Of a DNA stretch of 64,000 nucleotides, positions 19,044 through 40,184 are shown piece after piece. Each line of letters starts with the position of its first letter. The first letter of the stretch is position 1. The DNA is from an uncultured Pseudomonadales bacterium (GTDB taxonomy: Bacteria > Patescibacteriota > Microgenomatia > UBA1400 > Chazhemtobacteraceae). The notes under the pieces are model-generated. The model saw nothing but the letters and a program-made list of their open reading frames with translations. It did not search any database and was not told the DNA's origin. Location of the stretch: assembly GCA_964618725.1 (NCBI GenBank), contig CAZUBK010000002.1, positions 131,992-195,991 of the forward strand. Direction: 5' to 3'. Both the position numbers and the translations under genes were made by a program.

Positions 19044-19901
19044 TTAGAGGGTTCTTTGCAACTCTTTGAGAAGGTCTTTTTGTTTTTTGGTTAGTTTTTG
19101 GGGGACAAGAATATGAAGACGGATGTAGTAATCACCGTGACGATTAGTCTGAAGATACTTAATACCCTTACCGGAGAGGCGGATCATAGTATTGCCTTCG
19201 GTCCCCGGGCGGATCTTGATCTTGAGTTCTTTTTTTTCGCCTAGTAAGGGGACTGAAATGTCGCCGCCTAAGGCTGCAATGGTGAAAGGAAGGTCAAAGT
19301 CGAGAAAAATATCATAGCCTTCGCGCTTGAACTGGCGATGGGGGCGGACGTCAAAGCTAACATCAAAGTCGGGATAGCGCATACGGGTGCCATCGTCGGC
19401 ACCAGGCGGGACTTTAAGCGTATGTTGTTTACCTTGATGGACTATGGTCTTGGTAACGCCTAAAGCTGCTTCTTCAAAAGTAATAGTAAGAGAGTAGTGG
19501 GGCTTTTGGGGCTCACGGCGGAAGGAAGAGGAGCCACCAAAGAAGCTTTCAAAGATATTGAAGGGGTCAGAGAAGCCACCAAAGAAGTCAGCAAAATCAC
19601 CGGGGGAACCGGAAGTATAATAGGTGTAGTTGCCCGGGCCACCAGTGCCACGACTGAAGGGGCCGCCAGCGGAGGGATCAAAGGCGGTGTGACCAAACTG
19701 GTCATAGGTGAAGCGCTTGTCTTTGTTACTTAAGATTTCGTAGGCTTCGTTGACTTCTTTGAACTTAGTCTCGGCGTCAGCGGCTTTGTTGCGATCGGGG
19801 TGAAACTCAAGAGCCTTTTTGCGGTAGGCTTTTTTAATCTCATCTAGGGAAGCCTTTTTGGAGAGGCCAAGAATGTCGTAATAGTCTCTTTTACTTGTCA
19901 T
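19044..19901 (-). CDS. dnaJ: DnaJ/CbpA-type J-domain co-chaperone (no Zn-finger domain)
   Basis: J domain with HPD (DYYDILGL...HPDRN), a G/F region and C-terminal substrate-binding domains. No CxxCxGxG repeats. Confidence 0.8.
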
Positions 19902-32961: not shown

Positions 32962-33537
32962 ATGGCTGCCCAAGCGACATTTGCGAAAATAAATCTAGTT
33001 CCTCAGGACGAGTTTGAGAAAAGTTTAGTTGGCAAGGTGCTGCGGTGGACTCTGACCGCGGGAAAGTCAATTGTGGTAATCACTGAGTTCGTGGTTATTT
33101 TGGCTTTTCTATCACGTTTCAAGCTGGACCGAGATCTAAATGATTTGAACGAGGTGATTGAGCAAAAGACGTTGGTAGTAGAAAGTTATGCTGACACAGA
33201 GACACAGATGCGATTGCTTCAGACCAAGGCAGGAGTGGTTGGAATGATGAATAGAGAAGGGGTGGGAGTGGGGAAGAGATGGTTAGAGTTGGTGGAATTG
33301 ACACCCATAGACACTAGGTACAAAAACATAGAATTAGGTAAGAACCAGGTTGTATTAAAAGGAATTGCCGGATCAGAGGCGGGGTTTTCTCAACTATTAA
33401 GGTCGCTGAGTGAGCTAAATGATATTCAAAGCTTGGAGTCGGACGAGATTGAGTTTGATCCCGAGGAGGGTGGGGTTGTTTTTACGATTACGGCAAAATT
33501 AGCAAATGAAAAAGGACTTAAAGATGGCGACATTTAA
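32962..33537 (+). CDS. PilN-like type IV pilus assembly protein
   Basis: INLVPQ motif near the N-terminus, a single TM helix and a periplasmic-type coiled-coil/beta domain. Confidence 0.5.
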   Translation: MAAQATFAKINLVPQDEFEKSLVGKVLRWTLTAGKSIVVITEFVVILAFLSRFKLDRDLNDLNEVIEQKTLVVESYADTETQMRLLQTKAGVVGMMNREGVGVGKRWLELVELTPIDTRYKNIELGKNQVVLKGIAGSEAGFSQLLRSLSELNDIQSLESDEIEFDPEEGGVVFTITAKLANEKGLKDGDI

Positions 33538-34177
33538 AGCTTCGGGCTTGTATGAAGGTTACTTAAAGAATGTGCAGCGGATTTATGAACGCGAGCCAGT
33601 TCTCCAGGCCTCCTTACAAGTAATACTATCCATTTTTACGGTAGCTTTTTTTATTTTCTTTGCGATTAGACCAACGCTTTCTACAGTCTCGACCTTGGTG
33701 CGAAAAATTGATGATCAAAAACTGGTCAACGGTAAACTTGATAGCAAGATTCAACAACTGGCCATAGCCCAAGACAACCTGACAATCTATGGAGAGAGAC
33801 TCAATGATCAGTTGGATGAGGCCATTCCCAAACGACCGGATGTCGATAGATTGGCCAGACAAATCGAGGCAATCTCGATTGAGTCAGAAGCCTATATCAC
33901 TTCTTTAAATATTCAAGAGTCTCCTTTAGTCGGCGAGAAAACGACAATCATCAAAACCGCAGGTAAATCTGAGGGGGAACAATTTGTGGTTTTTAGTTTT
34001 GCTGCGGGGGGTAGCCAGGAACAAATAAGGAGTTTCATCAGCTTACTGGAGAAAATGGAGAGGGGGGTAATGATAACTCAATTATCGATAAAAGGGGCAG
34101 AGACATCACAGAAAGAAAATTTCACTTTGATGGCAGAAGGTAAGGCGACAATCTATTATTTACCGGAAAAGAAGTGA
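33524..34177 (+). CDS. PilO-like type IV pilus assembly protein
   Basis: Single TM helix, coiled coil and a C-terminal ferredoxin-like repeat. Immediately follows the PilN-like gene with a short overlap. Confidence 0.45.
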   Translation: MATFKASGLYEGYLKNVQRIYEREPVLQASLQVILSIFTVAFFIFFAIRPTLSTVSTLVRKIDDQKLVNGKLDSKIQQLAIAQDNLTIYGERLNDQLDEAIPKRPDVDRLARQIEAISIESEAYITSLNIQESPLVGEKTTIIKTAGKSEGEQFVVFSFAAGGSQEQIRSFISLLEKMERGVMITQLSIKGAETSQKENFTLMAEGKATIYYLPEKK

Positions 34178-34533
34178 AGAAAAAAACATCTGCTTCAATG
34201 AATGTTTTGGTCATTGGCCTGTTTACTCTATTGGCGGTAGGAAGTTGGGTAGTCTTTGATGTTTACAGAGCGCTGGTAAAGACGACTGTCCCCGAGGTGC
34301 TACAGGAACAGATTAAGTCGTTGGATCCAGAAATAGAGGCAACGATCATAAGTGACTTAAATAATAGAAGGCAATTCAGTGAAGAATATCTAGATACTTT
34401 GACGCCCCGTTTTTTGCTCGGGGAGGGAGAGACTAGTCCTGAACCAGAAGCGATACTGATTGAGACAGAACCCGAAGCGGTTCCCAAAGAGGAGACGGCA
34501 ACGCCTTCGGGTGAAATAGGGACAGTGCAATGA
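34174..34533 (+). CDS. small membrane-anchored protein with acidic E/P/T tail
   Basis: N-terminal TM helix. Start overlaps the PilO-like stop (ATGA). Confidence 0.4.
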   Translation: MKKKTSASMNVLVIGLFTLLAVGSWVVFDVYRALVKTTVPEVLQEQIKSLDPEIEATIISDLNNRRQFSEEYLDTLTPRFLLGEGETSPEPEAILIETEPEAVPKEETATPSGEIGTVQ

Positions 34534-34570: not shown

Positions 34571-36193
34571 ATGAAACTAGAATTGGGGGATTTAATGTCG
34601 AGGCGTATGCCGGCCATCTTAGGAGTGGTGTTGTTGCTTGGCGGTCTGATTGCGGCACTGTTTTTGGTGGGACAAAGCCAAGGTTTGCTCACTAGGGCCG
34701 GGCCAACTTCGACGCCAAGAAGTGTAAAGACAACTAATGTGAAGGAGGATTCATTTACCGTTTCGTGGATAAGTGACACAAAAGTAACAGGATTTATTAG
34801 ATATGGCGAAGAAAAGGGTAGCTTAAACAGGACTCTGAGTGACGACCGAGACCAGTTGTCGGGGAGCTCAGAAATGTACACAACTCATTACATAACAGTG
34901 AAGGGATTGAAACCAAACACTAAATATTACGTCAAGCTAGGATCGGGTTCAAAGACTTATGGCAGTAGTGGGACAGAAGAGCCATATGAAATAAAAACGG
35001 GAGGGGTGATAGCAGAGAAACCCGAAGTCGATGTCATTAATGGAAAAGTATTACTCTCTTCAGGGCAATCGGCCCCAGGAGTCATTGTTTATGTTGACAT
35101 CCCCGGAGGGGCACCCCTATCTTCCTTGACGAGGACAACAGGGGCCTGGACGCTGACATTATCACTAGTAAGAACGGTAGATCTGGCCGGGTATTTGGGA
35201 TACAACAAAGAAACAGAAGTGCTATCAATACTGGCACAGGGAGCGGATCTAGGAACGGCAACGGCAACCGTGACGACGAACAACGATACACCGGTGCCAG
35301 ATATCGCTTTAGGGCAGAACCTAGACTTACAAACAGGAGCAGATGTACAACTACAGGGGAAGACTGTTGAGATCCAGGATAATGGCTTGTCGGCAAATAG
35401 ACTGGAAGTAATCCCGGGGGAGATTGTGACGGTGATAAATAAAGACGGAGTACCACATTCGGTAACGGCAAAGGACAATTCATTCGACACTGGCTTAATC
35501 AGTGGTGGGGGCAATGCAACATTCACCTCGCCGCCGGCGGTGGGCGATTATCCATTTGAAGACTCAGCCAATCCGGGGGTAGAGTCACTGACTGGGGTCT
35601 TGACAGTCAAAGAGTCCGATTTAGTCGGGGCAGGACAGACAGGGGGTGGCTTTGGTGAGCTGGCAGACTTGAGTCAAGCGGCCGAGGCGACGCTTTCCGT
35701 TAAGCTACTGAATCCGGGAGTGAGTGGAGAAAGTATTGCTACGAGCTCTCCGGAGATACGAATTCAGGGGCCAACAGGAACAAAGGTAAAGATAACGGTA
35801 AATTCAACGCCGCAGACGACAGAAGTAACAATAGATTCAGATGGAGTGGTGGGCTGGACACCGCCGAGTCGGTTAGAGACGGGGCAACACACGGTAGTGG
35901 TGGAGTATACGGACACACAAGGAGTAGTACAACGAATTACTCGATTGTTTACCGTCTTGGCAGCTCAACCGTCGGGACAGGGGGGACTGCCCGCCTTCAC
36001 GGCAACGCCTTCGGCGACGCCGACGAGTACACCGAGTGCGTCGCCTTCGGGTACACCAAGGTCAACAATGCCGGCAACGGGGAGTGGGATACCGGAACCC
36101 GGGGTGATATCGCTGACGATTGCCATATTGGCGTTGGGAGTGGGCCTATTCTTTGGCGGAATAGCTTGGCAGATTTATTACTTGAAGATTTAA
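34571..36193 (+). CDS. cell-surface protein: N-terminal anchor, FN3-like, cupredoxin-like domain without Cu ligands, S/T/P linker, C-terminal sorting-signal-like TM
   Basis: FN3/purple-acid-phosphatase-N-like (FTVSWISD...YYVKLGSG). The plastocyanin-like segment (VINKDGVPHSVTAKDNSFDTGLI...GDYPFEDSANPG) lacks Cys/Met ligands. C-terminus is MPATGSGIPEPGVISLTIAILALGVG. Confidence 0.6.
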   Translation: MKLELGDLMSRRMPAILGVVLLLGGLIAALFLVGQSQGLLTRAGPTSTPRSVKTTNVKEDSFTVSWISDTKVTGFIRYGEEKGSLNRTLSDDRDQLSGSSEMYTTHYITVKGLKPNTKYYVKLGSGSKTYGSSGTEEPYEIKTGGVIAEKPEVDVINGKVLLSSGQSAPGVIVYVDIPGGAPLSSLTRTTGAWTLTLSLVRTVDLAGYLGYNKETEVLSILAQGADLGTATATVTTNNDTPVPDIALGQNLDLQTGADVQLQGKTVEIQDNGLSANRLEVIPGEIVTVINKDGVPHSVTAKDNSFDTGLISGGGNATFTSPPAVGDYPFEDSANPGVESLTGVLTVKESDLVGAGQTGGGFGELADLSQAAEATLSVKLLNPGVSGESIATSSPEIRIQGPTGTKVKITVNSTPQTTEVTIDSDGVVGWTPPSRLETGQHTVVVEYTDTQGVVQRITRLFTVLAAQPSGQGGLPAFTATPSATPTSTPSASPSGTPRSTMPATGSGIPEPGVISLTIAILALGVGLFFGGIAWQIYYLKI

Positions 36194-36206: not shown

Positions 36207-37424
36207 ATGAAAGATATGGAGAGGAAGTTGTTTGGACGAACCAAGCCGTGGATGATGTTTGTAGGGGCAGGATTATTGGTGGCGGCTTTGGCGGTGGCGG
36301 GAGGGGTGGTGTATGTGAGTAGGCAGCTGGCGACAAAGAGTCAGGAGACGAGGTCGTTGGCAAAATCGGGATGTGACGAGACTTACAGAGTGCAGTGTCA
36401 AGAAAAAGGGTTGAAGTGTCGTGCTGACCTGAATGGTCTGAATTACTGCTCTGGATGTCTTGATGGATACTCTACCTGCAGTTCAGGTAAGTGCTGTAAG
36501 GATAGTGGAGGTGGAGGAGGGAGGGAATGCAAGATCACGAATTGTACTTCTTGTCACACTGCTGGTGGAAGTGAGGTGTGTGATGCTTGTAAATCAGGTT
36601 ATACATCGATGGGTGATCGTTGTCAGAATACTAGCGCTGGGGAATGCCAAGAGGGACAAAAACGATGCAATGAGATTAGTCCTGAGATATGCGAGGAACG
36701 TAAATGGGAGTTCTACGGTACTTATTCTACTTACACCAGCAACCAAGAATGTAGAGAGAAGTATTTGGGGCAGGGCGGGGGAGGTGGATCAACAACCTCA
36801 AGTGGAGGAGGAGGGGGTGGTGGATCAAGTTGTGAGAAGGGACCAGGTCCGTGTTCGGTCTCTTGTGAAAGCGGGGATTCGTTTGATGACAGGACGTGTT
36901 TGTCAACATTTGATTCTTGTGAGCAATGGGCAAAGGAAGCATGTGGAACCGTTGGTTCTGTCCCAAGGACTTTCGGCAATTATGGAGGTGACTCTCCTTC
37001 AGGTGGCGGGTCGACGTCAAGCGGTGGGGGCTACGTTCCGGAAGAGGTGTCAATACCAACGCCGACGCCGATTCAATACTGCATTAATGTCTATTTTTAT
37101 GTAAATCAGGGAGGGGCGTGGACGAAGACAAAAAAGGGCGACTTGGTAGACAGGATACGGATTGGAGATACTATTAGATTGGCGGTAAAACCGGTGGGGA
37201 AGATCACCAGATGGGACAAGGCACGGTTCTTTATCGATAATGATAAGACACTAAAAACAAAGAAGGTAGAGCCAGTAGAGACTGCCTTGGTTAATGAACA
37301 GGGCGAGTTCTACCTTGACTACACGATTCCTTCACCTATTGAGAGTACATCTGTTAGCAAGAAAGGGACGAGTATGAAGTTTGAGGTAAGGGCAGAATTA
37401 TATAGAAACCTAACTAAAAAATGA
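36207..37424 (+). CDS. membrane-anchored cysteine-rich (furin/EGF-like repeat) protein with Gly-rich linkers and conserved C-terminal beta domain
   Basis: N-terminal TM helix. About 30 Cys in CxxC...GY...C patterns, GGGGG linkers, and a C-terminal domain (IRLAVKPV...NEQGEFYLDYT) shared with the 37706 gene. Confidence 0.55.
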   Translation: MKDMERKLFGRTKPWMMFVGAGLLVAALAVAGGVVYVSRQLATKSQETRSLAKSGCDETYRVQCQEKGLKCRADLNGLNYCSGCLDGYSTCSSGKCCKDSGGGGGRECKITNCTSCHTAGGSEVCDACKSGYTSMGDRCQNTSAGECQEGQKRCNEISPEICEERKWEFYGTYSTYTSNQECREKYLGQGGGGGSTTSSGGGGGGGSSCEKGPGPCSVSCESGDSFDDRTCLSTFDSCEQWAKEACGTVGSVPRTFGNYGGDSPSGGGSTSSGGGYVPEEVSIPTPTPIQYCINVYFYVNQGGAWTKTKKGDLVDRIRIGDTIRLAVKPVGKITRWDKARFFIDNDKTLKTKKVEPVETALVNEQGEFYLDYTIPSPIESTSVSKKGTSMKFEVRAELYRNLTKK

Positions 37425-37633
37425 AAAATAAACTTAAAAAAGGACGATTAAAGATGATCTTGACCTCTTTTGGCCTGCTTCTGGTGGCTGGTGTGGTAAT
37501 TGCAGTGGCCCTAAGGGTGGCAGTACCGACATTGATTGCTCCAACAGCGCCAGAAAGTCAACCCGAGGCCGCGGAGGGCTGGAAACATTCGTCAGATTGT
37601 AACGTATCATTCTCAGTAAAATTATCAGAGTAA
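37421..37633 (+). CDS. small membrane protein; paralogous to N-terminus of 38718 gene (MKNK...TM...IAPTAPES)
   Basis: ATGA overlap with the upstream gene. Shares the anchor plus IAPTAPES(Q/K)P segment with the 38718-40184 protein. Confidence 0.4.
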   Translation: MKNKLKKGRLKMILTSFGLLLVAGVVIAVALRVAVPTLIAPTAPESQPEAAEGWKHSSDCNVSFSVKLSE

Positions 37634-37705: not shown

Positions 37706-38710
37706 ATGGATCCAGCTGCCCAAGACAACCAACAAACAACAACACTTCCAAACGATGGTTTGGACGACCAAGTGAGACACGGTGATTTGCCGTGGACGGG
37801 TGCGACAGCTCAAGCACCAACAGTATCGACTCCTGGTATGGCTAGTTTGCCACCACTGCCCAAATTGCCTTCCTTACCGACAACACAGGTTCCCGTTCCT
37901 GATGTTTCTGTTCCCAACTCATTTGCGGATACTGGTCTACCTGGACCGCTGGCGGAACCCGAATCACCCCCACCGCCATTACCAGAAGTTGGTGGGCTGC
38001 AAATATCAACGACGACAATACCTGTAGCTCTACCTTCTATGCCTCAAGATGAAGCGGTGACTGGTTTGTCGTCAGTTTCTTCAGGAGGAGGGGCCGGGGA
38101 AGTGACAATGAAGAAAAAGGGGGGCAAGACTGGCCTGGTGGCAGGGATAGCGGCCTTGGTTTTGTTGGTTGGCGCGGCGACAGGAGGGACACTATATATT
38201 TCGGAGCAAACTAGGCAACAAAATGCAGATCTTCAATCGAGGGCATCCTTGGTGCCGGCTTGTCGGGACGGGAGAGATAATGACGGAGATGGGAAGATTG
38301 ACTGTTTGACAGGGGTGGCAGACCCGGGTTGTTTCCCTGATAACAACGGAGGCGGAGGAGCGTGTAATCCCGAAGATGAAAATGAAGTAAATCAAGTGGC
38401 AACTACTCCGACTCAAGAGGAGTTGCTAGCATGTACGGGGGTAGTTCTTTACTGGAAAAACAATACAACTTGGACGAAAGGGACGGCGGAGCAGGTGGCA
38501 ACGAATACGACGACGGGAGAAGCAATTAGATTGGCGGTCAAACCTGTGGATGGGACGGCCTCTGTGGCAAGATTCAGAGTTAACGATGGGGACTGGAGAG
38601 AGTCGACAACAAAGAATGAGCAAGGAGAGTTCTACGTTGAATATACACCGACAACCTTTGAAACATTTAATATAGAGGCACAGATGGGTGCATACGGATA
38701 CGAAGATTAA
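37706..38710 (+). CDS. Pro-rich N-terminal region, internal TM, one MopE-like Cys/Asp repeat, conserved C-terminal beta domain
   Basis: CRDGRDNDGDGKIDC...GCFPD...GGGGACNPED repeat. C-terminal domain IRLAVKPV...NEQGEFYVEYT is paralogous to that of the 36207 gene. Confidence 0.55.
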   Translation: MDPAAQDNQQTTTLPNDGLDDQVRHGDLPWTGATAQAPTVSTPGMASLPPLPKLPSLPTTQVPVPDVSVPNSFADTGLPGPLAEPESPPPPLPEVGGLQISTTTIPVALPSMPQDEAVTGLSSVSSGGGAGEVTMKKKGGKTGLVAGIAALVLLVGAATGGTLYISEQTRQQNADLQSRASLVPACRDGRDNDGDGKIDCLTGVADPGCFPDNNGGGGACNPEDENEVNQVATTPTQEELLACTGVVLYWKNNTTWTKGTAEQVATNTTTGEAIRLAVKPVDGTASVARFRVNDGDWRESTTKNEQGEFYVEYTPTTFETFNIEAQMGAYGYED

Positions 38711-38717
38711 AACTAAA

Positions 38718-40184
38718 ATGAAAAACAAGACTTTACTAGCGGTTATTCTATTTACCTTGGTGGCAGTGGGTGTGGTTTTGGGAATAGTTTTTGTACTACC
38801 AAGATTAACAACAACGGAGGAGTCGATTGCCCCGACGGCTCCTGAGAGTAAGCCAGCAGCATTTACTGAAGCAACACAAAGTGCAACGAGAGAACTGATT
38901 ATTTCTAAGATGTCAAATGAATGTACCTGGACGGGAGAGCAAAGGGATGGGTATGCGGCAGGTTATGCCACTTCTGAGGTGAGTTTTGGAAACTGTACGA
39001 TACTAGGTGGGAGAATAGAATCGGTCCCTCCGATTCCTTCGGGTTGGGTATATGATGACGTCTTGTATCTCTTGGTTGACAACAAGATATTCTCTGGCGG
39101 GGACAAGTCGTTGGCAGGTGCAGGGCTGGCTTTGGGTGATGCGTGGGACTGGACGAAAGTGGTGGGGACAAGACAGAGGAGTCGCCAAAATACGCAGGTT
39201 TGTTACGGCGGAGGTACCTGTGAAGCGCCGGGAACAAGAAATACTGCAGCCGGGAATCCCTCTGGAGCGATCTTGATGGATTTGAGTGCGGCGGTGTCTG
39301 ACTTGTTGGATTCAAGTCTGGATAGTCACACGATTACTGCCTTAGTAACCGGAGATAATAATCCCAGGACGGATTGTCGCATCAGAAATGATTTGAAAGT
39401 AACTCTGGAGCTATCCTGTACCGAGCTAATTCCCGAGTGTCGAGATGGGATAGATAATGACGGAGACAGTAAGATTGATTGTACTGTAGGAGCAGAGGAT
39501 CCTGGCTGTTTCCCAGATGGAAGAGGCGGTGGAGGAGCGTGTAATCCAGAAGATGACTCAGAACTAGATGTCTATCTTCCCGAGTGTAGTGACGGAATAG
39601 ATAATGATAACGACGGTAAGATTGACTGTACCGCGGGAGCTGCCGATCCGGGCTGTTTCCCAGATGGAAGAGGCGGTGGAGGAGCGTGTAATCCAGAAGA
39701 TGACTCAGAACTAGATGTCTATCTTCCCGAGTGTAGTGACGGAATAGATAATGATAACGACGGTAAGATTGACTGTACCGCGGGAGCTGCCGATCCGGGC
39801 TGTTTCCCAGATGGTCATGGAGGAGGTGGCGTTTGCAACGGCCAAGACGATGATGAAGCAGATGCGACACTACAGTGGGGGAATGTGTGTGAAGAGAATT
39901 TGACTTTGGTAGGTGTGACTCCGACAGCCACACCAACACCGACTGCGATCCCTACTCCGACATCTGGCCCAACAGCGACGCCGACGCCAACCAGACCGGC
40001 GGGTGCGCCAACTGCGACCCCTACTCCGACAGTACCAGGTGCGCCAACAAATACACCGACTCCAAGGGCAACAGCGACGCCGACGCCAGTACAGCTTCCT
40101 GAGGCAGGAATAGGGCTACCGACACTGGGTGCTTTAGGTGGAGGAGTAGTGATGATATTACTCGGAGTACTATTAGCGCTTTAG
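38718..40184 (+). CDS. surface protein with three 49-aa MopE-like (CxDGxDNDxDxKIDC) repeats, P/T-rich linker and C-terminal hydrophobic anchor
   Basis: Start placed at MKNKTLL (the second Met avoids overlap). Repeats are ECxDGIDNDxDxKIDCTxGAxDPGCFPDGxGGGGACNPEDDSELDVYLP x3, followed by TPTATPTPT linker and LPEAGIGLPTLGALGGGVVMILLGVLLAL. Confidence 0.6.
   Translation: MKNKTLLAVILFTLVAVGVVLGIVFVLPRLTTTEESIAPTAPESKPAAFTEATQSATRELIISKMSNECTWTGEQRDGYAAGYATSEVSFGNCTILGGRIESVPPIPSGWVYDDVLYLLVDNKIFSGGDKSLAGAGLALGDAWDWTKVVGTRQRSRQNTQVCYGGGTCEAPGTRNTAAGNPSGAILMDLSAAVSDLLDSSLDSHTITALVTGDNNPRTDCRIRNDLKVTLELSCTELIPECRDGIDNDGDSKIDCTVGAEDPGCFPDGRGGGGACNPEDDSELDVYLPECSDGIDNDNDGKIDCTAGAADPGCFPDGRGGGGACNPEDDSELDVYLPECSDGIDNDNDGKIDCTAGAADPGCFPDGHGGGGVCNGQDDDEADATLQWGNVCEENLTLVGVTPTATPTPTAIPTPTSGPTATPTPTRPAGAPTATPTPTVPGAPTNTPTPRATATPTPVQLPEAGIGLPTLGALGGGVVMILLGVLLAL
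39431..39871 (+). repeat. three tandem 147-bp coding repeats; copies 2 and 3 identical over about 150 bp (39514-39814)
   Basis: Direct reading shows ...gatgtctatcttcccgagtgtagtgacggaatagataatgataacgacggtaagattgactgtaccgcgggagctgccgatccgggctgtttcccagatgg... appears twice with period 147. Confidence 0.8.

Follow-up and report, generated by a model that had tools for sequence, protein, structure and literature searches.

A variable, cysteine-rich region in a predicted surface protein of a Microgenomates-type CPR bacterium

The cysteine-rich stretch of a 405-residue protein from an uncultivated CPR (Microgenomates-type) bacterium is probably the variable ectodomain of a single-pass surface protein, anchored at its N-terminus. 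It would be composed of four unrelated small modules (M1 to M4), borne on flexible Gly/Ser linkers ahead of a conserved Ig-like beta-sandwich domain, each module probably being locked by internal disulfides (4, 3, 2 and 3 bonds, respectively). The gene appears to lie inside a hypervariable island of the window (the whole 64-kb stretch of DNA analysed), near pilus-assembly genes, between a conserved block comprising pilN, a pilO-like gene and an fn3/Big_13 gene on one side, and, on the other, a conserved block encoding an ICMT-like methyltransferase, an amine-oxidase-like protein and a DUF2298 protein. A sequence-only reading had described the stretch as furin/EGF-like repeats in a membrane-anchored protein, possibly acquired horizontally. 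The features of the locus are collected in Table 1.

Table 1. Features of the locus, with their coordinates in the window.
Feature	Coordinates	Strand	Remarks
pilN, pilO-like gene, 119-aa membrane protein	32962..34533	+	conserved upstream genes
540-aa fn3 / cupredoxin-like / Big_13 surface protein	34571..36193	+	conserved upstream neighbour
ORF of 405 aa (P0001), protein under study	36207..37424	+	helix, four Cys modules, Gly/Ser linkers, C-terminal beta-sandwich
Putative signal-anchor / transmembrane helix, about residues 15-37	36249..36317	+	read from sequence
M1, residues 56-97	36372..36497	+	8 Cys; includes CSGCLDGYSTC
GGGGG linker, residues 101-105	36507..36521	+	
M2, residues 108-139	36528..36623	+	6 Cys; C-x4-CTSC-x8-CDAC-x2-GY-x6-C
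M3, residues 147-182	36645..36752	+	4 Cys; C-x6-C-x7-C-x19-C
Long Gly/Ser/Thr linker, residues 188-208	36768..36830	+	
M4, residues 209-253	36831..36965	+	6 Cys; C..C.V.C..G..F.D..C....F..C..WA..ACGTVGSVP
Gly/Ser linker, residues 260-275	36984..37031	+	
C-terminal beta-sandwich domain, residues 285-405	37059..37421	+	constant part of family
70-aa ORF	37421..37633	+	resembles N-terminal part of neighbouring LPxxG-type proteins
Paralogue, 334 aa (P0003)	37706..38710	+	same C-terminal domain as the 405-residue protein
498-aa surface protein	38688..40184	+	three acidic double-disulfide repeats (NF033662; 147-nt tandem repeat)

Architecture and cysteine spacing

The description of a membrane-anchored protein is borne out by a hydrophobic N-terminal helix, which AF2 places at residues 13-40. 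The basic residues R6, K7, R11 and K13 precede it, and the positive-inside rule is ambiguous on the protein itself. The topology was therefore taken by homology with paralogues, and an N-in/C-out orientation is predicted from those family members that have a KKKK cluster directly ahead of the helix. The modules would then, very probably, be extracellular.

Residues 56-246 contain 24 cysteines (12% of this stretch); in the other proteins that the window encodes, the share of cysteine is mostly 0-0.6%. The 24 cysteines are spread over the modules in even numbers (8, 6, 4 and 6 in M1 to M4). Glycine runs are found at residues 101-105 (GGGGG), 190-206 (GGGGG..GGGGGGG) and 266-275 (GGG..GGG), and poly-Gly/Ser linkers occupy three of the four junctions. 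The poly-Gly linkers reported earlier are thus real, but M2 and M3 are separated by 'QNTSAGE' only.

The three cysteine-rich strings quoted in the sequence-only reading are all in frame (nt 36447-36497, 36543-36623 and 36645-36692). The furin-like spacing ascribed to them is complete in M2, the only one of the four modules in which it is, half present in M1, and absent from the third string, CQEGQKRCNEISPEIC. The pattern C-x2-C-x2-G-[FYW]-x(3-12)-C occurs twice, in CSGCLDGYSTC.. and in CDACKSGYTSMGDRC; at least two copies arise in 0.015% of 20,000 shuffles of the region, for a pattern chosen post hoc. The longer furin-like core, C-x2-C-x(3-12)-C-x2-C-x2-G-Y-x(n)-C, has a single match (M2, residues 113-139) and is obtained in 0.26% of shuffles, this pattern, too, having been picked after the sequence was seen. 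No C-x-C motif ahead of G-Y is present in the sequence. The term 'repeats' does not hold, as the pairwise local alignment scores of M1 to M4 fall inside those of composition-preserving shuffles (p = 0.09-0.8); the sole weak internal likeness links two 20-residue halves, M1b and M2b (p about 0.02).

Structure models were built with AF2 from single sequences only, for the full protein (mean pLDDT 50.6) and for M1-M3 (56.7). M1 is the only cysteine module modelled with moderate confidence (about 71-82), as a helix and four short strands, and pLDDT is below 50 for M2-M4. The C-terminal domain is modelled as beta strands, with block pLDDT values of 48-76, mostly 55-76. Foldseek searches against the PDB returned nothing at E<=0.001: the best matches of the C-terminal domain were generic Ig/fn3 sandwiches (best E 0.26, non-significant), and those of the M1-M3 model included EGF-like and follistatin-like domains (E>=1.3, prob<=0.16, also non-significant). 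When the PDB was searched with a C-terminal domain profile, the sole matches were weak and of antibody VH type (E>=0.09).

Family searches and origin of the gene

It is very unlikely that the modules are true furin-like or EGF-superfamily repeats, whether ancient or acquired from a eukaryote, that bind eukaryotic host surfaces. Besides the fit of M2 to C-x2-C-x8-C-x2-C-x2-G-Y-x6-C, the half motif of M1 and the fold matches of the M1-M3 model, such an origin can call on weak Pfam matches of M2 to TNFR_ELAPOR1_6th (E 0.23) and DUF7630 (E 0.28), and on a comparable CGECLSGYDSATADGTC motif carried by the gene of a related locus, L083. L083 apart, however, the furin-like motif is absent from the other cysteine-rich family proteins scanned, and the modules are not tandem repeats of a single unit. 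Pfam-A has no family that matches the whole protein at E<=1, and searches with the single modules at E<=10 gave no furin-like, GF_recep, EGF, laminin-EGF, VSP or ephrin-receptor-like family. The only weak matches, all sub-threshold, were those of M2 to DZR_2, TNFR_ELAPOR1_6th and DUF7630 and that of M4 to TSP_1. NCBIfam held nothing relevant for the protein (NF033662 was not matched), and PDB sequence searches by module recovered no EGFR, insulin receptor, furin, laminin or EGF chains. The proposed furin/EGF family membership is therefore not sustained. In addition, the closest relatives hold quite different modules at this locus, and nothing links the organism to a eukaryotic host. The furin-like spacing of M2 is best taken for a convergent case of the common CxxC disulfide-hairpin pattern, not for a sign of homology.

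Nor does the gene look foreign. Its GC content (0.479), its GC3 (0.45) and an unusual GC3 strand skew (+0.39) all match those of the neighbouring genes and, because the composition is native, recent horizontal transfer is unsupported. Related genomes also encode, at the same position, a gene with a helix, a variable region and this C-terminal domain, which likewise speaks against the acquisition suggested earlier.

Homologue searches with the protein returned little beyond itself, and short cysteine modules carry little sequence signal, so that sequence methods could miss a very remote kinship of M2 with furin-like repeats. The protein is a singleton 90%-identity cluster with source entries from NCBI and Logan. 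At full length it had no match but itself among 5.8e9 proteins, and the homologue search with the C-terminal domain likewise recovered nothing else. An exhaustive phmmer search with M1-M3 against 1.84e9 representatives found itself and one match, P0002, which is spurious (aligned via 'FRADLNG..FSGG' and not cysteine-rich). A metagenome scan with a two-sequence alignment of the C-terminal domain gave no match, and one with a three-sequence alignment yielded L089 and L090.

Several candidate identities were set aside. The match of M1-M2 to the TB domain of LTBP1 (PDB 1ksq, E=0.0015) was rejected because the alignment crosses the GGGGG linker from M1 into M2; moreover, the eight-cysteine TB domain has a CCC triplet in a domain of about 70 residues, and the protein has CC. 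The other PDB matches were to (GGGGS)n linkers of scFv. M4 shares with TSP_1 (PF00090) six cysteines and the CSV[ST]C.xG motif but, unlike it, lacks the Trp-Arg layer. Its Pfam match (E=0.0035) scores 17.9 bits, under the gathering cut-off of 21.6, phmmer finds no PDB match at E<=10, and a profile of four M4 homologues retrieves from the PDB only an 11-residue CSVTCGNG match in circumsporozoite protein (E about 0.4); a TSP_1 identity was, thus, not retained. Finally, a regular expression linked M3 to the 'CDGW..HCN..C..W[EQ]D..C' module of L085, L086 and L087, a link rejected because the profile HMM of that module misses M3 even at E<=100.

A syntenic family with a variable centre

The 540-aa fn3/Big_13 protein served as synteny anchor, and the loci compared were L082-L088, L090 and L091. 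The order pilN, pilO-like gene, small membrane protein and fn3/Big_13 gene is kept in eight related Microgenomates-like loci, and the fn3/Big_13 gene is followed, in related loci, by a gene with a membrane helix, a variable centre and a C-terminal domain of the same type as in the 405-residue protein. The organism was assigned from homologues of the anchor, fairly distant ones, whose source names are Candidatus Collierbacteria, Woesebacteria or Microgenomates group. Scanning genome contigs with the anchor gave no match, and a LepA contig scan gave only 45-50% identical matches, mainly from Bacteroidota, which told nothing about taxonomy or synteny. Judged by sequence and gene order, the 405-residue protein is a member of an undescribed Microgenomates family, consisting of a helix, a variable region and a C-terminal beta-sandwich, and encoded 3' of the fn3/Big_13 gene.

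A second member is encoded close by. The C-terminal domain shares 31% identity (BLASTP E=2e-10) with the C-terminus of the paralogue at 37706-38710, and the two domains also share a 34-nt patch at 85% identity. This paralogue has a Pro-rich N-terminus with a DDQVRHGDLPW motif, a KKK cluster, a membrane helix and one acidic double-disulfide repeat, a repeat that it has in common with the following ORF (38688-40184), which also contains a Pro/Thr-rich region and ends in LPEAG and a hydrophobic C-terminus. The shared repeat and the 34-nt patch speak for an exchange of modules within the island. Against NF033662, whose cut-off is 41 bits, these two neighbours score 53.8 bits, which passes, and 22.8 bits, which does not. 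An origin of the cysteine modules through a DGR or tandem repeats was considered and rejected, the gene having neither a tandem repeat nor a template-like repeat; the only repeats found were the 34-nt patch and the 147-nt repeats of the neighbour. Rfam and tRNA scans of the window returned nothing. Other proteins encoded in the window include FemAB, LCP, MurJ, PilN and a YYY/DUF2298 protein.

Conservation within the family is confined to certain parts of the protein. When compared with the syntenic ORFs by phmmer (E<=0.01), the C-terminal domain had seven matches, M4 two and M1-M3 none. M4 (E=1.4e-8 against L086 and 1.6e-7 against L088) is the only cysteine module kept in other genomes, M1, M2 and M3 having no counterpart in the syntenic relatives. 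The alignment of the C-terminal domains (A3) shows invariant Cys, Gly, Phe and Tyr residues, Cys292 (nt 37080-37082) being the invariant lone cysteine of this domain. Flanking proteins are 54-79% identical between the window and its closest relative, L082, and the 405-residue protein has no BLASTP match there at E<=1e-3. At the same site, genes of related genomes share the helix and the C-terminal domain, whereas their central modules differ in set, number and order; in one distant relative, the centre is not cysteine-rich at all. Such a pattern would point to fast diversification by gain, loss and exchange of modules, as expected if the protein contacts cells, a host or phages.

Cysteine parity is strict among the 11 family members examined, all found via the one synteny anchor. 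Their variable regions contain 24, 4, 22, 62, 12, 44, 40, 26, 40, 4 and 22 cysteines, even in all 11 cases (p about 5e-4), and each of the 11 has one invariant lone cysteine after this region, so that the protein under study has 24 + 1. The even counts together with the lone cysteine support disulfide pairing, and the cysteine-rich stretch is, therefore, probably disulfide-bonded. No gene for a disulfide oxidoreductase was found within the 64-kb window; an MdbA-like oxidoreductase family, often encoded beside VKOR, is reported to be enriched and widespread in CPR (10.1101/335083).

These data also bear on whether the gene is decaying or spurious, its product being unfolded, Cys/Gly-rich low complexity, such as a duplication remnant in a recombining island. 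This is highly unlikely, although the protein is a singleton whose M1-M3 lack homologues and whose M2-M4 are modelled with low confidence. It also lacks the long Pro/acidic cytoplasmic N-terminus of most family members, only 14 residues preceding its helix; an N-terminus with an [IV]R.G.LP[WFY] motif and a KKK cluster is found in the paralogue and in the genes of L082, L083, L085, L086 and L091. The adjoining 70-aa ORF, moreover, resembles a gene fragment, with the membrane helix, APTAPES motif and C.VSF strand common to the LPxxG-type neighbours. Against decay, the frame is intact across 405 codons, GC3 and GC3 skew are typical for genes on this strand, and conservation covers the membrane helix as well as M4 and the C-terminal domain with its invariant cysteine. 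An identical sequence is also carried by a separate Logan assembly (run SRR12113420). Random cysteine-rich low complexity, the fallback offered with the sequence-only reading, is at odds with the even number in each module, the conservation of M4 elsewhere and the even counts in all 11 members.

Also very unlikely are metal-binding modules in place of disulfide knots, whether CxxC..CxxC knuckles of zinc-ribbon type or a haem site of CxxCH type. M2 does have two CxxC pairs 8 residues apart, a DZR_2 (double zinc ribbon) match (E=0.022) and a CTSCH resembling the haem c motif (cytochrome c matches at E about 0.8-4), but all these matches are non-significant, the region is predicted to be extracytoplasmic by homology with paralogues, only three CxxC motifs occur among the 24 cysteines, the window showed no gene for cytochrome c maturation, and Cys4 metal sites are argued against because several family counts (22, 62 and 26), although even, are not multiples of four.

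Known systems and implications for CPR bacteria

The variable ectodomain favoured here has partial parallels in known systems. Furin-like repeats (SMART FU / IPR006212; PF00757) and the CxxC repeats of Giardia VSPs share the spacing of M2 and half of that of M1, and these systems, too, are extracellular, membrane-anchored and variable surface proteins, as predicted for the 405-residue protein. Unlike furin-like repeats, the latter is matched by no profile and does not form a tandem array from a single unit, three of its modules have unrelated cysteine patterns, and, unlike both systems, its gene is native to a CPR bacterium. A second parallel is a group of large extracellular proteins from CPR Peregrinibacteria, very rich in cysteine and variable between strains, for which a role in attachment was proposed (Anantharaman et al. 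2016, PMC4736985). Compared by description, both cases concern CPR bacteria, with cysteine concentrated in few exported proteins that vary among related genomes; the Peregrinibacteria proteins differ in their much greater size (about 1,655 aa on average), their phylum and their 14-gene cluster.

Other parallels are found at the locus itself. The acidic double-disulfide repeat (NF033662) of both immediate neighbours also sits between a helix and a C-terminal domain, separated by GGGG; the modules of the 405-residue protein differ from it in being non-acidic and in their cysteine spacings. As for the LPXTG-type Gram-positive surface proteins, and adhesins with Ig-like domains, the locus has Ig-like, fn3 and Big_13 proteins with LPxxG and hydrophobic C-termini, and the 405-residue protein likewise ends in a beta-sandwich domain. 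Unlike LPXTG-type proteins, it lacks a sorting signal at the C-terminus, its predicted anchor being the N-terminal helix.

A bolder reading, which we consider unlikely, takes the products of the island for a Microgenomates-specific surface display system of two covalently joined parts that determines cell contact or host recognition. The anchored protein would bear the hypervariable, shuffled disulfide modules, and Cys292, in the first strand of its beta-sandwich, would be joined by an intermolecular disulfide to the lone cysteine of the adjacent LPxxG-type protein, presumably sortase-anchored. This partner cysteine sits in a conserved APTAP..W..C.LSF strand of the adjacent LPxxG-type proteins, and the total cysteine count is odd in all seven that were scored, namely the seven of the eight listed with an [AV]PTAP N-terminus. 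The complex would be encoded beside pilN and the pilO-like gene, in episymbiont-like bacteria, and would diversify much as the CxxC-rich variant surface proteins do in eukaryotic parasites.

For the single anchored protein with its variable ectodomain, the cysteine modules may serve at the cell surface as rigid units for display or binding that resist proteases, and a role in cell-surface or host contact is plausible. The furin-like spacing, being limited to a single short module, provides no evidence for eukaryote-like domains or gene transfer. The strict even count and the one lone cysteine predict intramolecular disulfides and, in addition, a single intermolecular bond. CPR bacteria are believed to live in attachment to other cells, and few of the molecules making this contact are, to our knowledge, known. 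The locus offers a concrete and testable candidate: a conserved cassette in linkage with pilN and a pilO-like gene, whose central gene keeps its anchor and C-terminal domain, and swaps its predicted disulfide-rich modules among species.

Module layout and relation to known cysteine-rich families

The sequence-only reading quoted three strings as furin/EGF-like repeats, and all of them lie inside one ORF, the target (see table). Its short, basic N-terminus leads into a hydrophobic helix spanning residues ~15-37 (13-40 in the AF2 model), followed by four cysteine modules (M1-M4) and a C-terminal beta-sandwich. Cysteine content reaches 6.2% in the target and 3.8% in the neighbouring 498-aa surface protein; for most other window proteins it is 0-0.6%. 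A DnaJ homologue (J domain and C-terminal domain) is consistent with this very Cys-poor proteome, since it has no cysteine and therefore lacks the usual CxxCxGxG zinc-finger region.

Features of the target and its surroundings in the window
Feature	Window position	Strand	Size or residues	Cys	Remark
Target ORF	36207-37424	+	405 aa		holds the flagged stretch
Quoted strings	36447-36497, 36543-36623, 36645-36692				all inside target
Juxtamembrane segment	36318-36370				SQETRSLAKS
M1			56-97	8
M2			108-139	6
CTSCH in M2	36543-36557
M3			147-182	4
M4			209-246	6
C-terminal domain			~120 residues, target end	1	C292 at 37080-37082
70-aa ORF	37421-37633		70 aa		overlaps target's stop codon
Paralogue	37706-38710				second family gene
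147-nt repeat, further copy	38253-38399		147 nt		69% identity
Neighbour	38688-40184		498 aa		surface protein
147-nt tandem repeat	39430-39870
DnaJ homologue	19044-19901	-	285 aa	0

The modules had been described as repeats separated by poly-Gly. Gly/Ser runs do link M1 to M2 and M3 to M4, and another follows M4, but M2 and M3 are joined by QNTSAGE only; the word "repeats" fits only loosely, because the four modules lack significant mutual similarity. The C-x2-C-x2-G-Y..C motif is found twice in the target (reached by 0.015% of shuffles), and the full furin-like core, a pattern picked post hoc after sequence inspection, once, in M2 (0.26% of shuffles).

No Pfam-A family matches the whole target at E<=1. 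Searches with the single modules at E<=10 returned only sub-threshold matches, for M2 (DZR_2, 0.022; TNFR_ELAPOR1_6th, 0.23; DUF7630, 0.28) and for M4 (TSP_1, E=0.0035, 17.9 bits for a 21.6-bit cut-off). NCBIfam contains nothing relevant for the target, and its acidic double-disulfide repeat, NF033662, is present in both neighbours. For the ectodomain and the single modules, PDB sequence searches retrieved scFv linkers, a marginal match to the LTBP1 TB domain, CxxCH look-alikes in cytochromes c, or no hit at all. The LTBP1 alignment crosses a poly-Gly linker and was rejected, as was a haem c reading of CTSCH, which looks like the CxxCH attachment motif and whose sole PDB matches are cytochromes c at a non-significant E of ~0.8-4. 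Searching 5.8e9 proteins with the target recovered only the target itself, and an exhaustive phmmer search of M1-M3 against 1.84e9 cluster representatives added one spurious match. Single-sequence AF2 models were confident for M1 only (pLDDT ~71-82) and moderate for the C-terminal sandwich; Foldseek found no significant match to them. The target is outside every Pfam, NCBIfam or PDB family that could be tested. With no significant match to Cys-repeat families, the proposed furin/EGF membership is refuted by the criterion set for it; a motif-level resemblance persists in M2, and it is only in the spacing of this one module that the target recalls furin-like or VSP-type repeats.

A native family in a conserved gene order

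The window carries housekeeping genes (alaS, ftsK, RNase J, pnp, infB, nusA, dnaJ/dnaK/grpE/hrcA, lepA, murJ, rpsT, tpiA, uvrD-like helicases, metG) and envelope genes of Gram-positive type (FemAB, LCP). Directly upstream of the target lies a 540-aa fn3/cupredoxin-like/Big_13 protein with 288 homologues, those bearing organism names being from Candidatus Collierbacteria, Woesebacteria or the Microgenomates group. The window thus probably belongs to a CPR bacterium of Microgenomates type. Contigs of eight homologues and one metagenome-scan locus, numbered L082-L088, L090 and L091 below, formed the synteny set. The kept order is (lepA and murJ on the opposite strand), rpsT, pilN, a pilO-like gene, a small membrane protein, the fn3/Big_13 protein, variable genes, (ICMT-like), amine-oxidase-like, DUF2298/YYY and LCP.

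The first gene of the variable segment has one architecture in every compared locus: its N-terminal part is usually Pro/acidic and carries an [IV]R.G.LP[WFY] motif, next come a KKK cluster and a membrane helix, and a variable central region precedes a C-terminal domain like that of the target (alignment A3). Two genes of this kind lie in the window: the target, in which the long N-terminus is missing, and its paralogue. Central regions range from the single acidic-disulfide repeat of the paralogue to about 62 cysteines in many different modules in L083; that of L090 has ~200 residues and 4 cysteines only. When parts of the target were searched against all ORFs of the compared loci, the C-terminal domain matched seven syntenic genes (E<=0.01) and M4 matched L086 (E 1e-8), L088 (1e-7) and, weakly, L082, whereas M1, M2 and M3 matched none. 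This synteny-defined family (membrane helix, variable region, C-terminal sandwich with a lone Cys) is nameless in the libraries searched.

Just after the membrane helix, most Cys-rich proteins of these islands bear an F.GD[IV]RQRA[SGN] motif, also when they lack the C-terminal domain (examples are L085:8658-10772, L086:4125-6095, L088 ORF +4633 and L091:8399-9841). The juxtamembrane segment of the target has a degenerate version. The motif might mark a site of processing or sorting.

In GC, in GC3 and in its strong GC3 strand skew, the target matches its neighbours; a recent transfer from a eukaryote is unsupported, and the family is native to its lineage. Strand bias in the window is extreme (GC skew +0.24). 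On the coding strand, GC3 skew is +0.2 to +0.67 in + strand genes and ~-0.4 to -0.8 in most - strand genes, a few short ones being near zero. Regardless of gene orientation, then, G is enriched on the + strand. The bias is common to the closest relatives (L082, L083, L091) and absent from L085, L086 and L090.

Probable module turnover in a hypervariable island

Proteins flanking the variable segment are 54-79% identical between the window and its closest relative, L082, but the target has no BLASTP match there. This places the flagged stretch in a hypervariable island, within a neighbourhood that is otherwise well conserved. Repeat analysis showed modules common to adjacent island genes and a recent tandem duplication in the neighbour, whose acidic double-disulfide repeat is encoded by a 147-nt tandem repeat (TRF: 2.6 copies, 92% matches; a second search: three copies, the second 88% and the third 69% identical to the first). 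With the further copy inside the paralogue, these show that the repeat was duplicated recently and that adjacent genes share modules.

The 70-aa ORF copies only the N-terminal part of LPxxG-type proteins (membrane helix, IAPTAPES motif, C.VSF strand), and is probably a truncated paralogue or rearrangement remnant. Related islands encode more very Cys-rich mosaic proteins, with up to 92 Cys in 1,056 aa (L085:11522-13261, L086:7152-10322, L086:6113-7120, L088 ORF +4633). Several module types recur in them, shuffled among proteins and genomes, such as CDGW..HCNTG.C.QYFC.NG.WED, CG[DN]G.C...E....CP.DC and the 8-Cys CNNTCS..SDC.SGL.C.GG.C.NPSC...T.C.C; none matches Pfam.

Cysteine parity and a putative surface role

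Each of the four modules has an even cysteine count, and 11 of the 11 family members examined have an even number of cysteines ahead of the C-terminal domain's invariant first Cys (24, 4, 22, 62, 12, 44, 40, 26, 40, 4 and 22, several not multiples of four), for which random parity gives a chance of ~5e-4. A Lys cluster just before the helix in paralogues suggests that the C-terminal side of the target is extracellular. An MdbA-like thiol-disulfide oxidoreductase family, often beside VKOR, is reported to be enriched and widespread in CPR (10.1101/335083). We infer that each module is an extracellular unit knotted by disulfides.

Two adjacent island families each have exactly one unpaired-looking Cys. 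In the first, it lies in the first strand of the C-terminal sandwich, xC[VI]x[VI]xxY (Cys292 of the target); in the second, in the conserved [AV]PTAP..W..C.[LV]SF strand of LPxxG-ended neighbour proteins, whose total Cys is odd (1, 19, 3, 9, 17, 41 and 1, and likewise 1 in the L091 protein). The latter set comprises the 70-aa ORF and the 498-aa neighbour in the window, with L083:7681-8901, L084:6838-7413, L085:10782-11459, L086:6113-7120, L090:4278-4862 and L091:9792-10343. The lone cysteines might be explained by an intermolecular disulfide joining the two proteins.

The target is probably a surface protein, anchored in the membrane, that displays a conserved Ig-like domain together with disulfide-rich modules that are rigid and variable. 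Its gene is accompanied by those of wall-associated proteins (fn3/Big_13 with an MPATG-type end, APTAP proteins with LP[EDQS]AG ends), and these genes adjoin pilN and the pilO-like gene. It would work in the manner of other variable surface proteins built from Cys-rich modules, and the role agrees with the Cys-rich, strain-variable extracellular proteins remarked on in CPR Peregrinibacteria (PMC4736985). Rapid module turnover suggests selection by interaction partners, for example host cells, other cells or phages. While the original furin/EGF finding is largely deflated, the hypervariable island and the strict Cys-count rule merit specialist attention.
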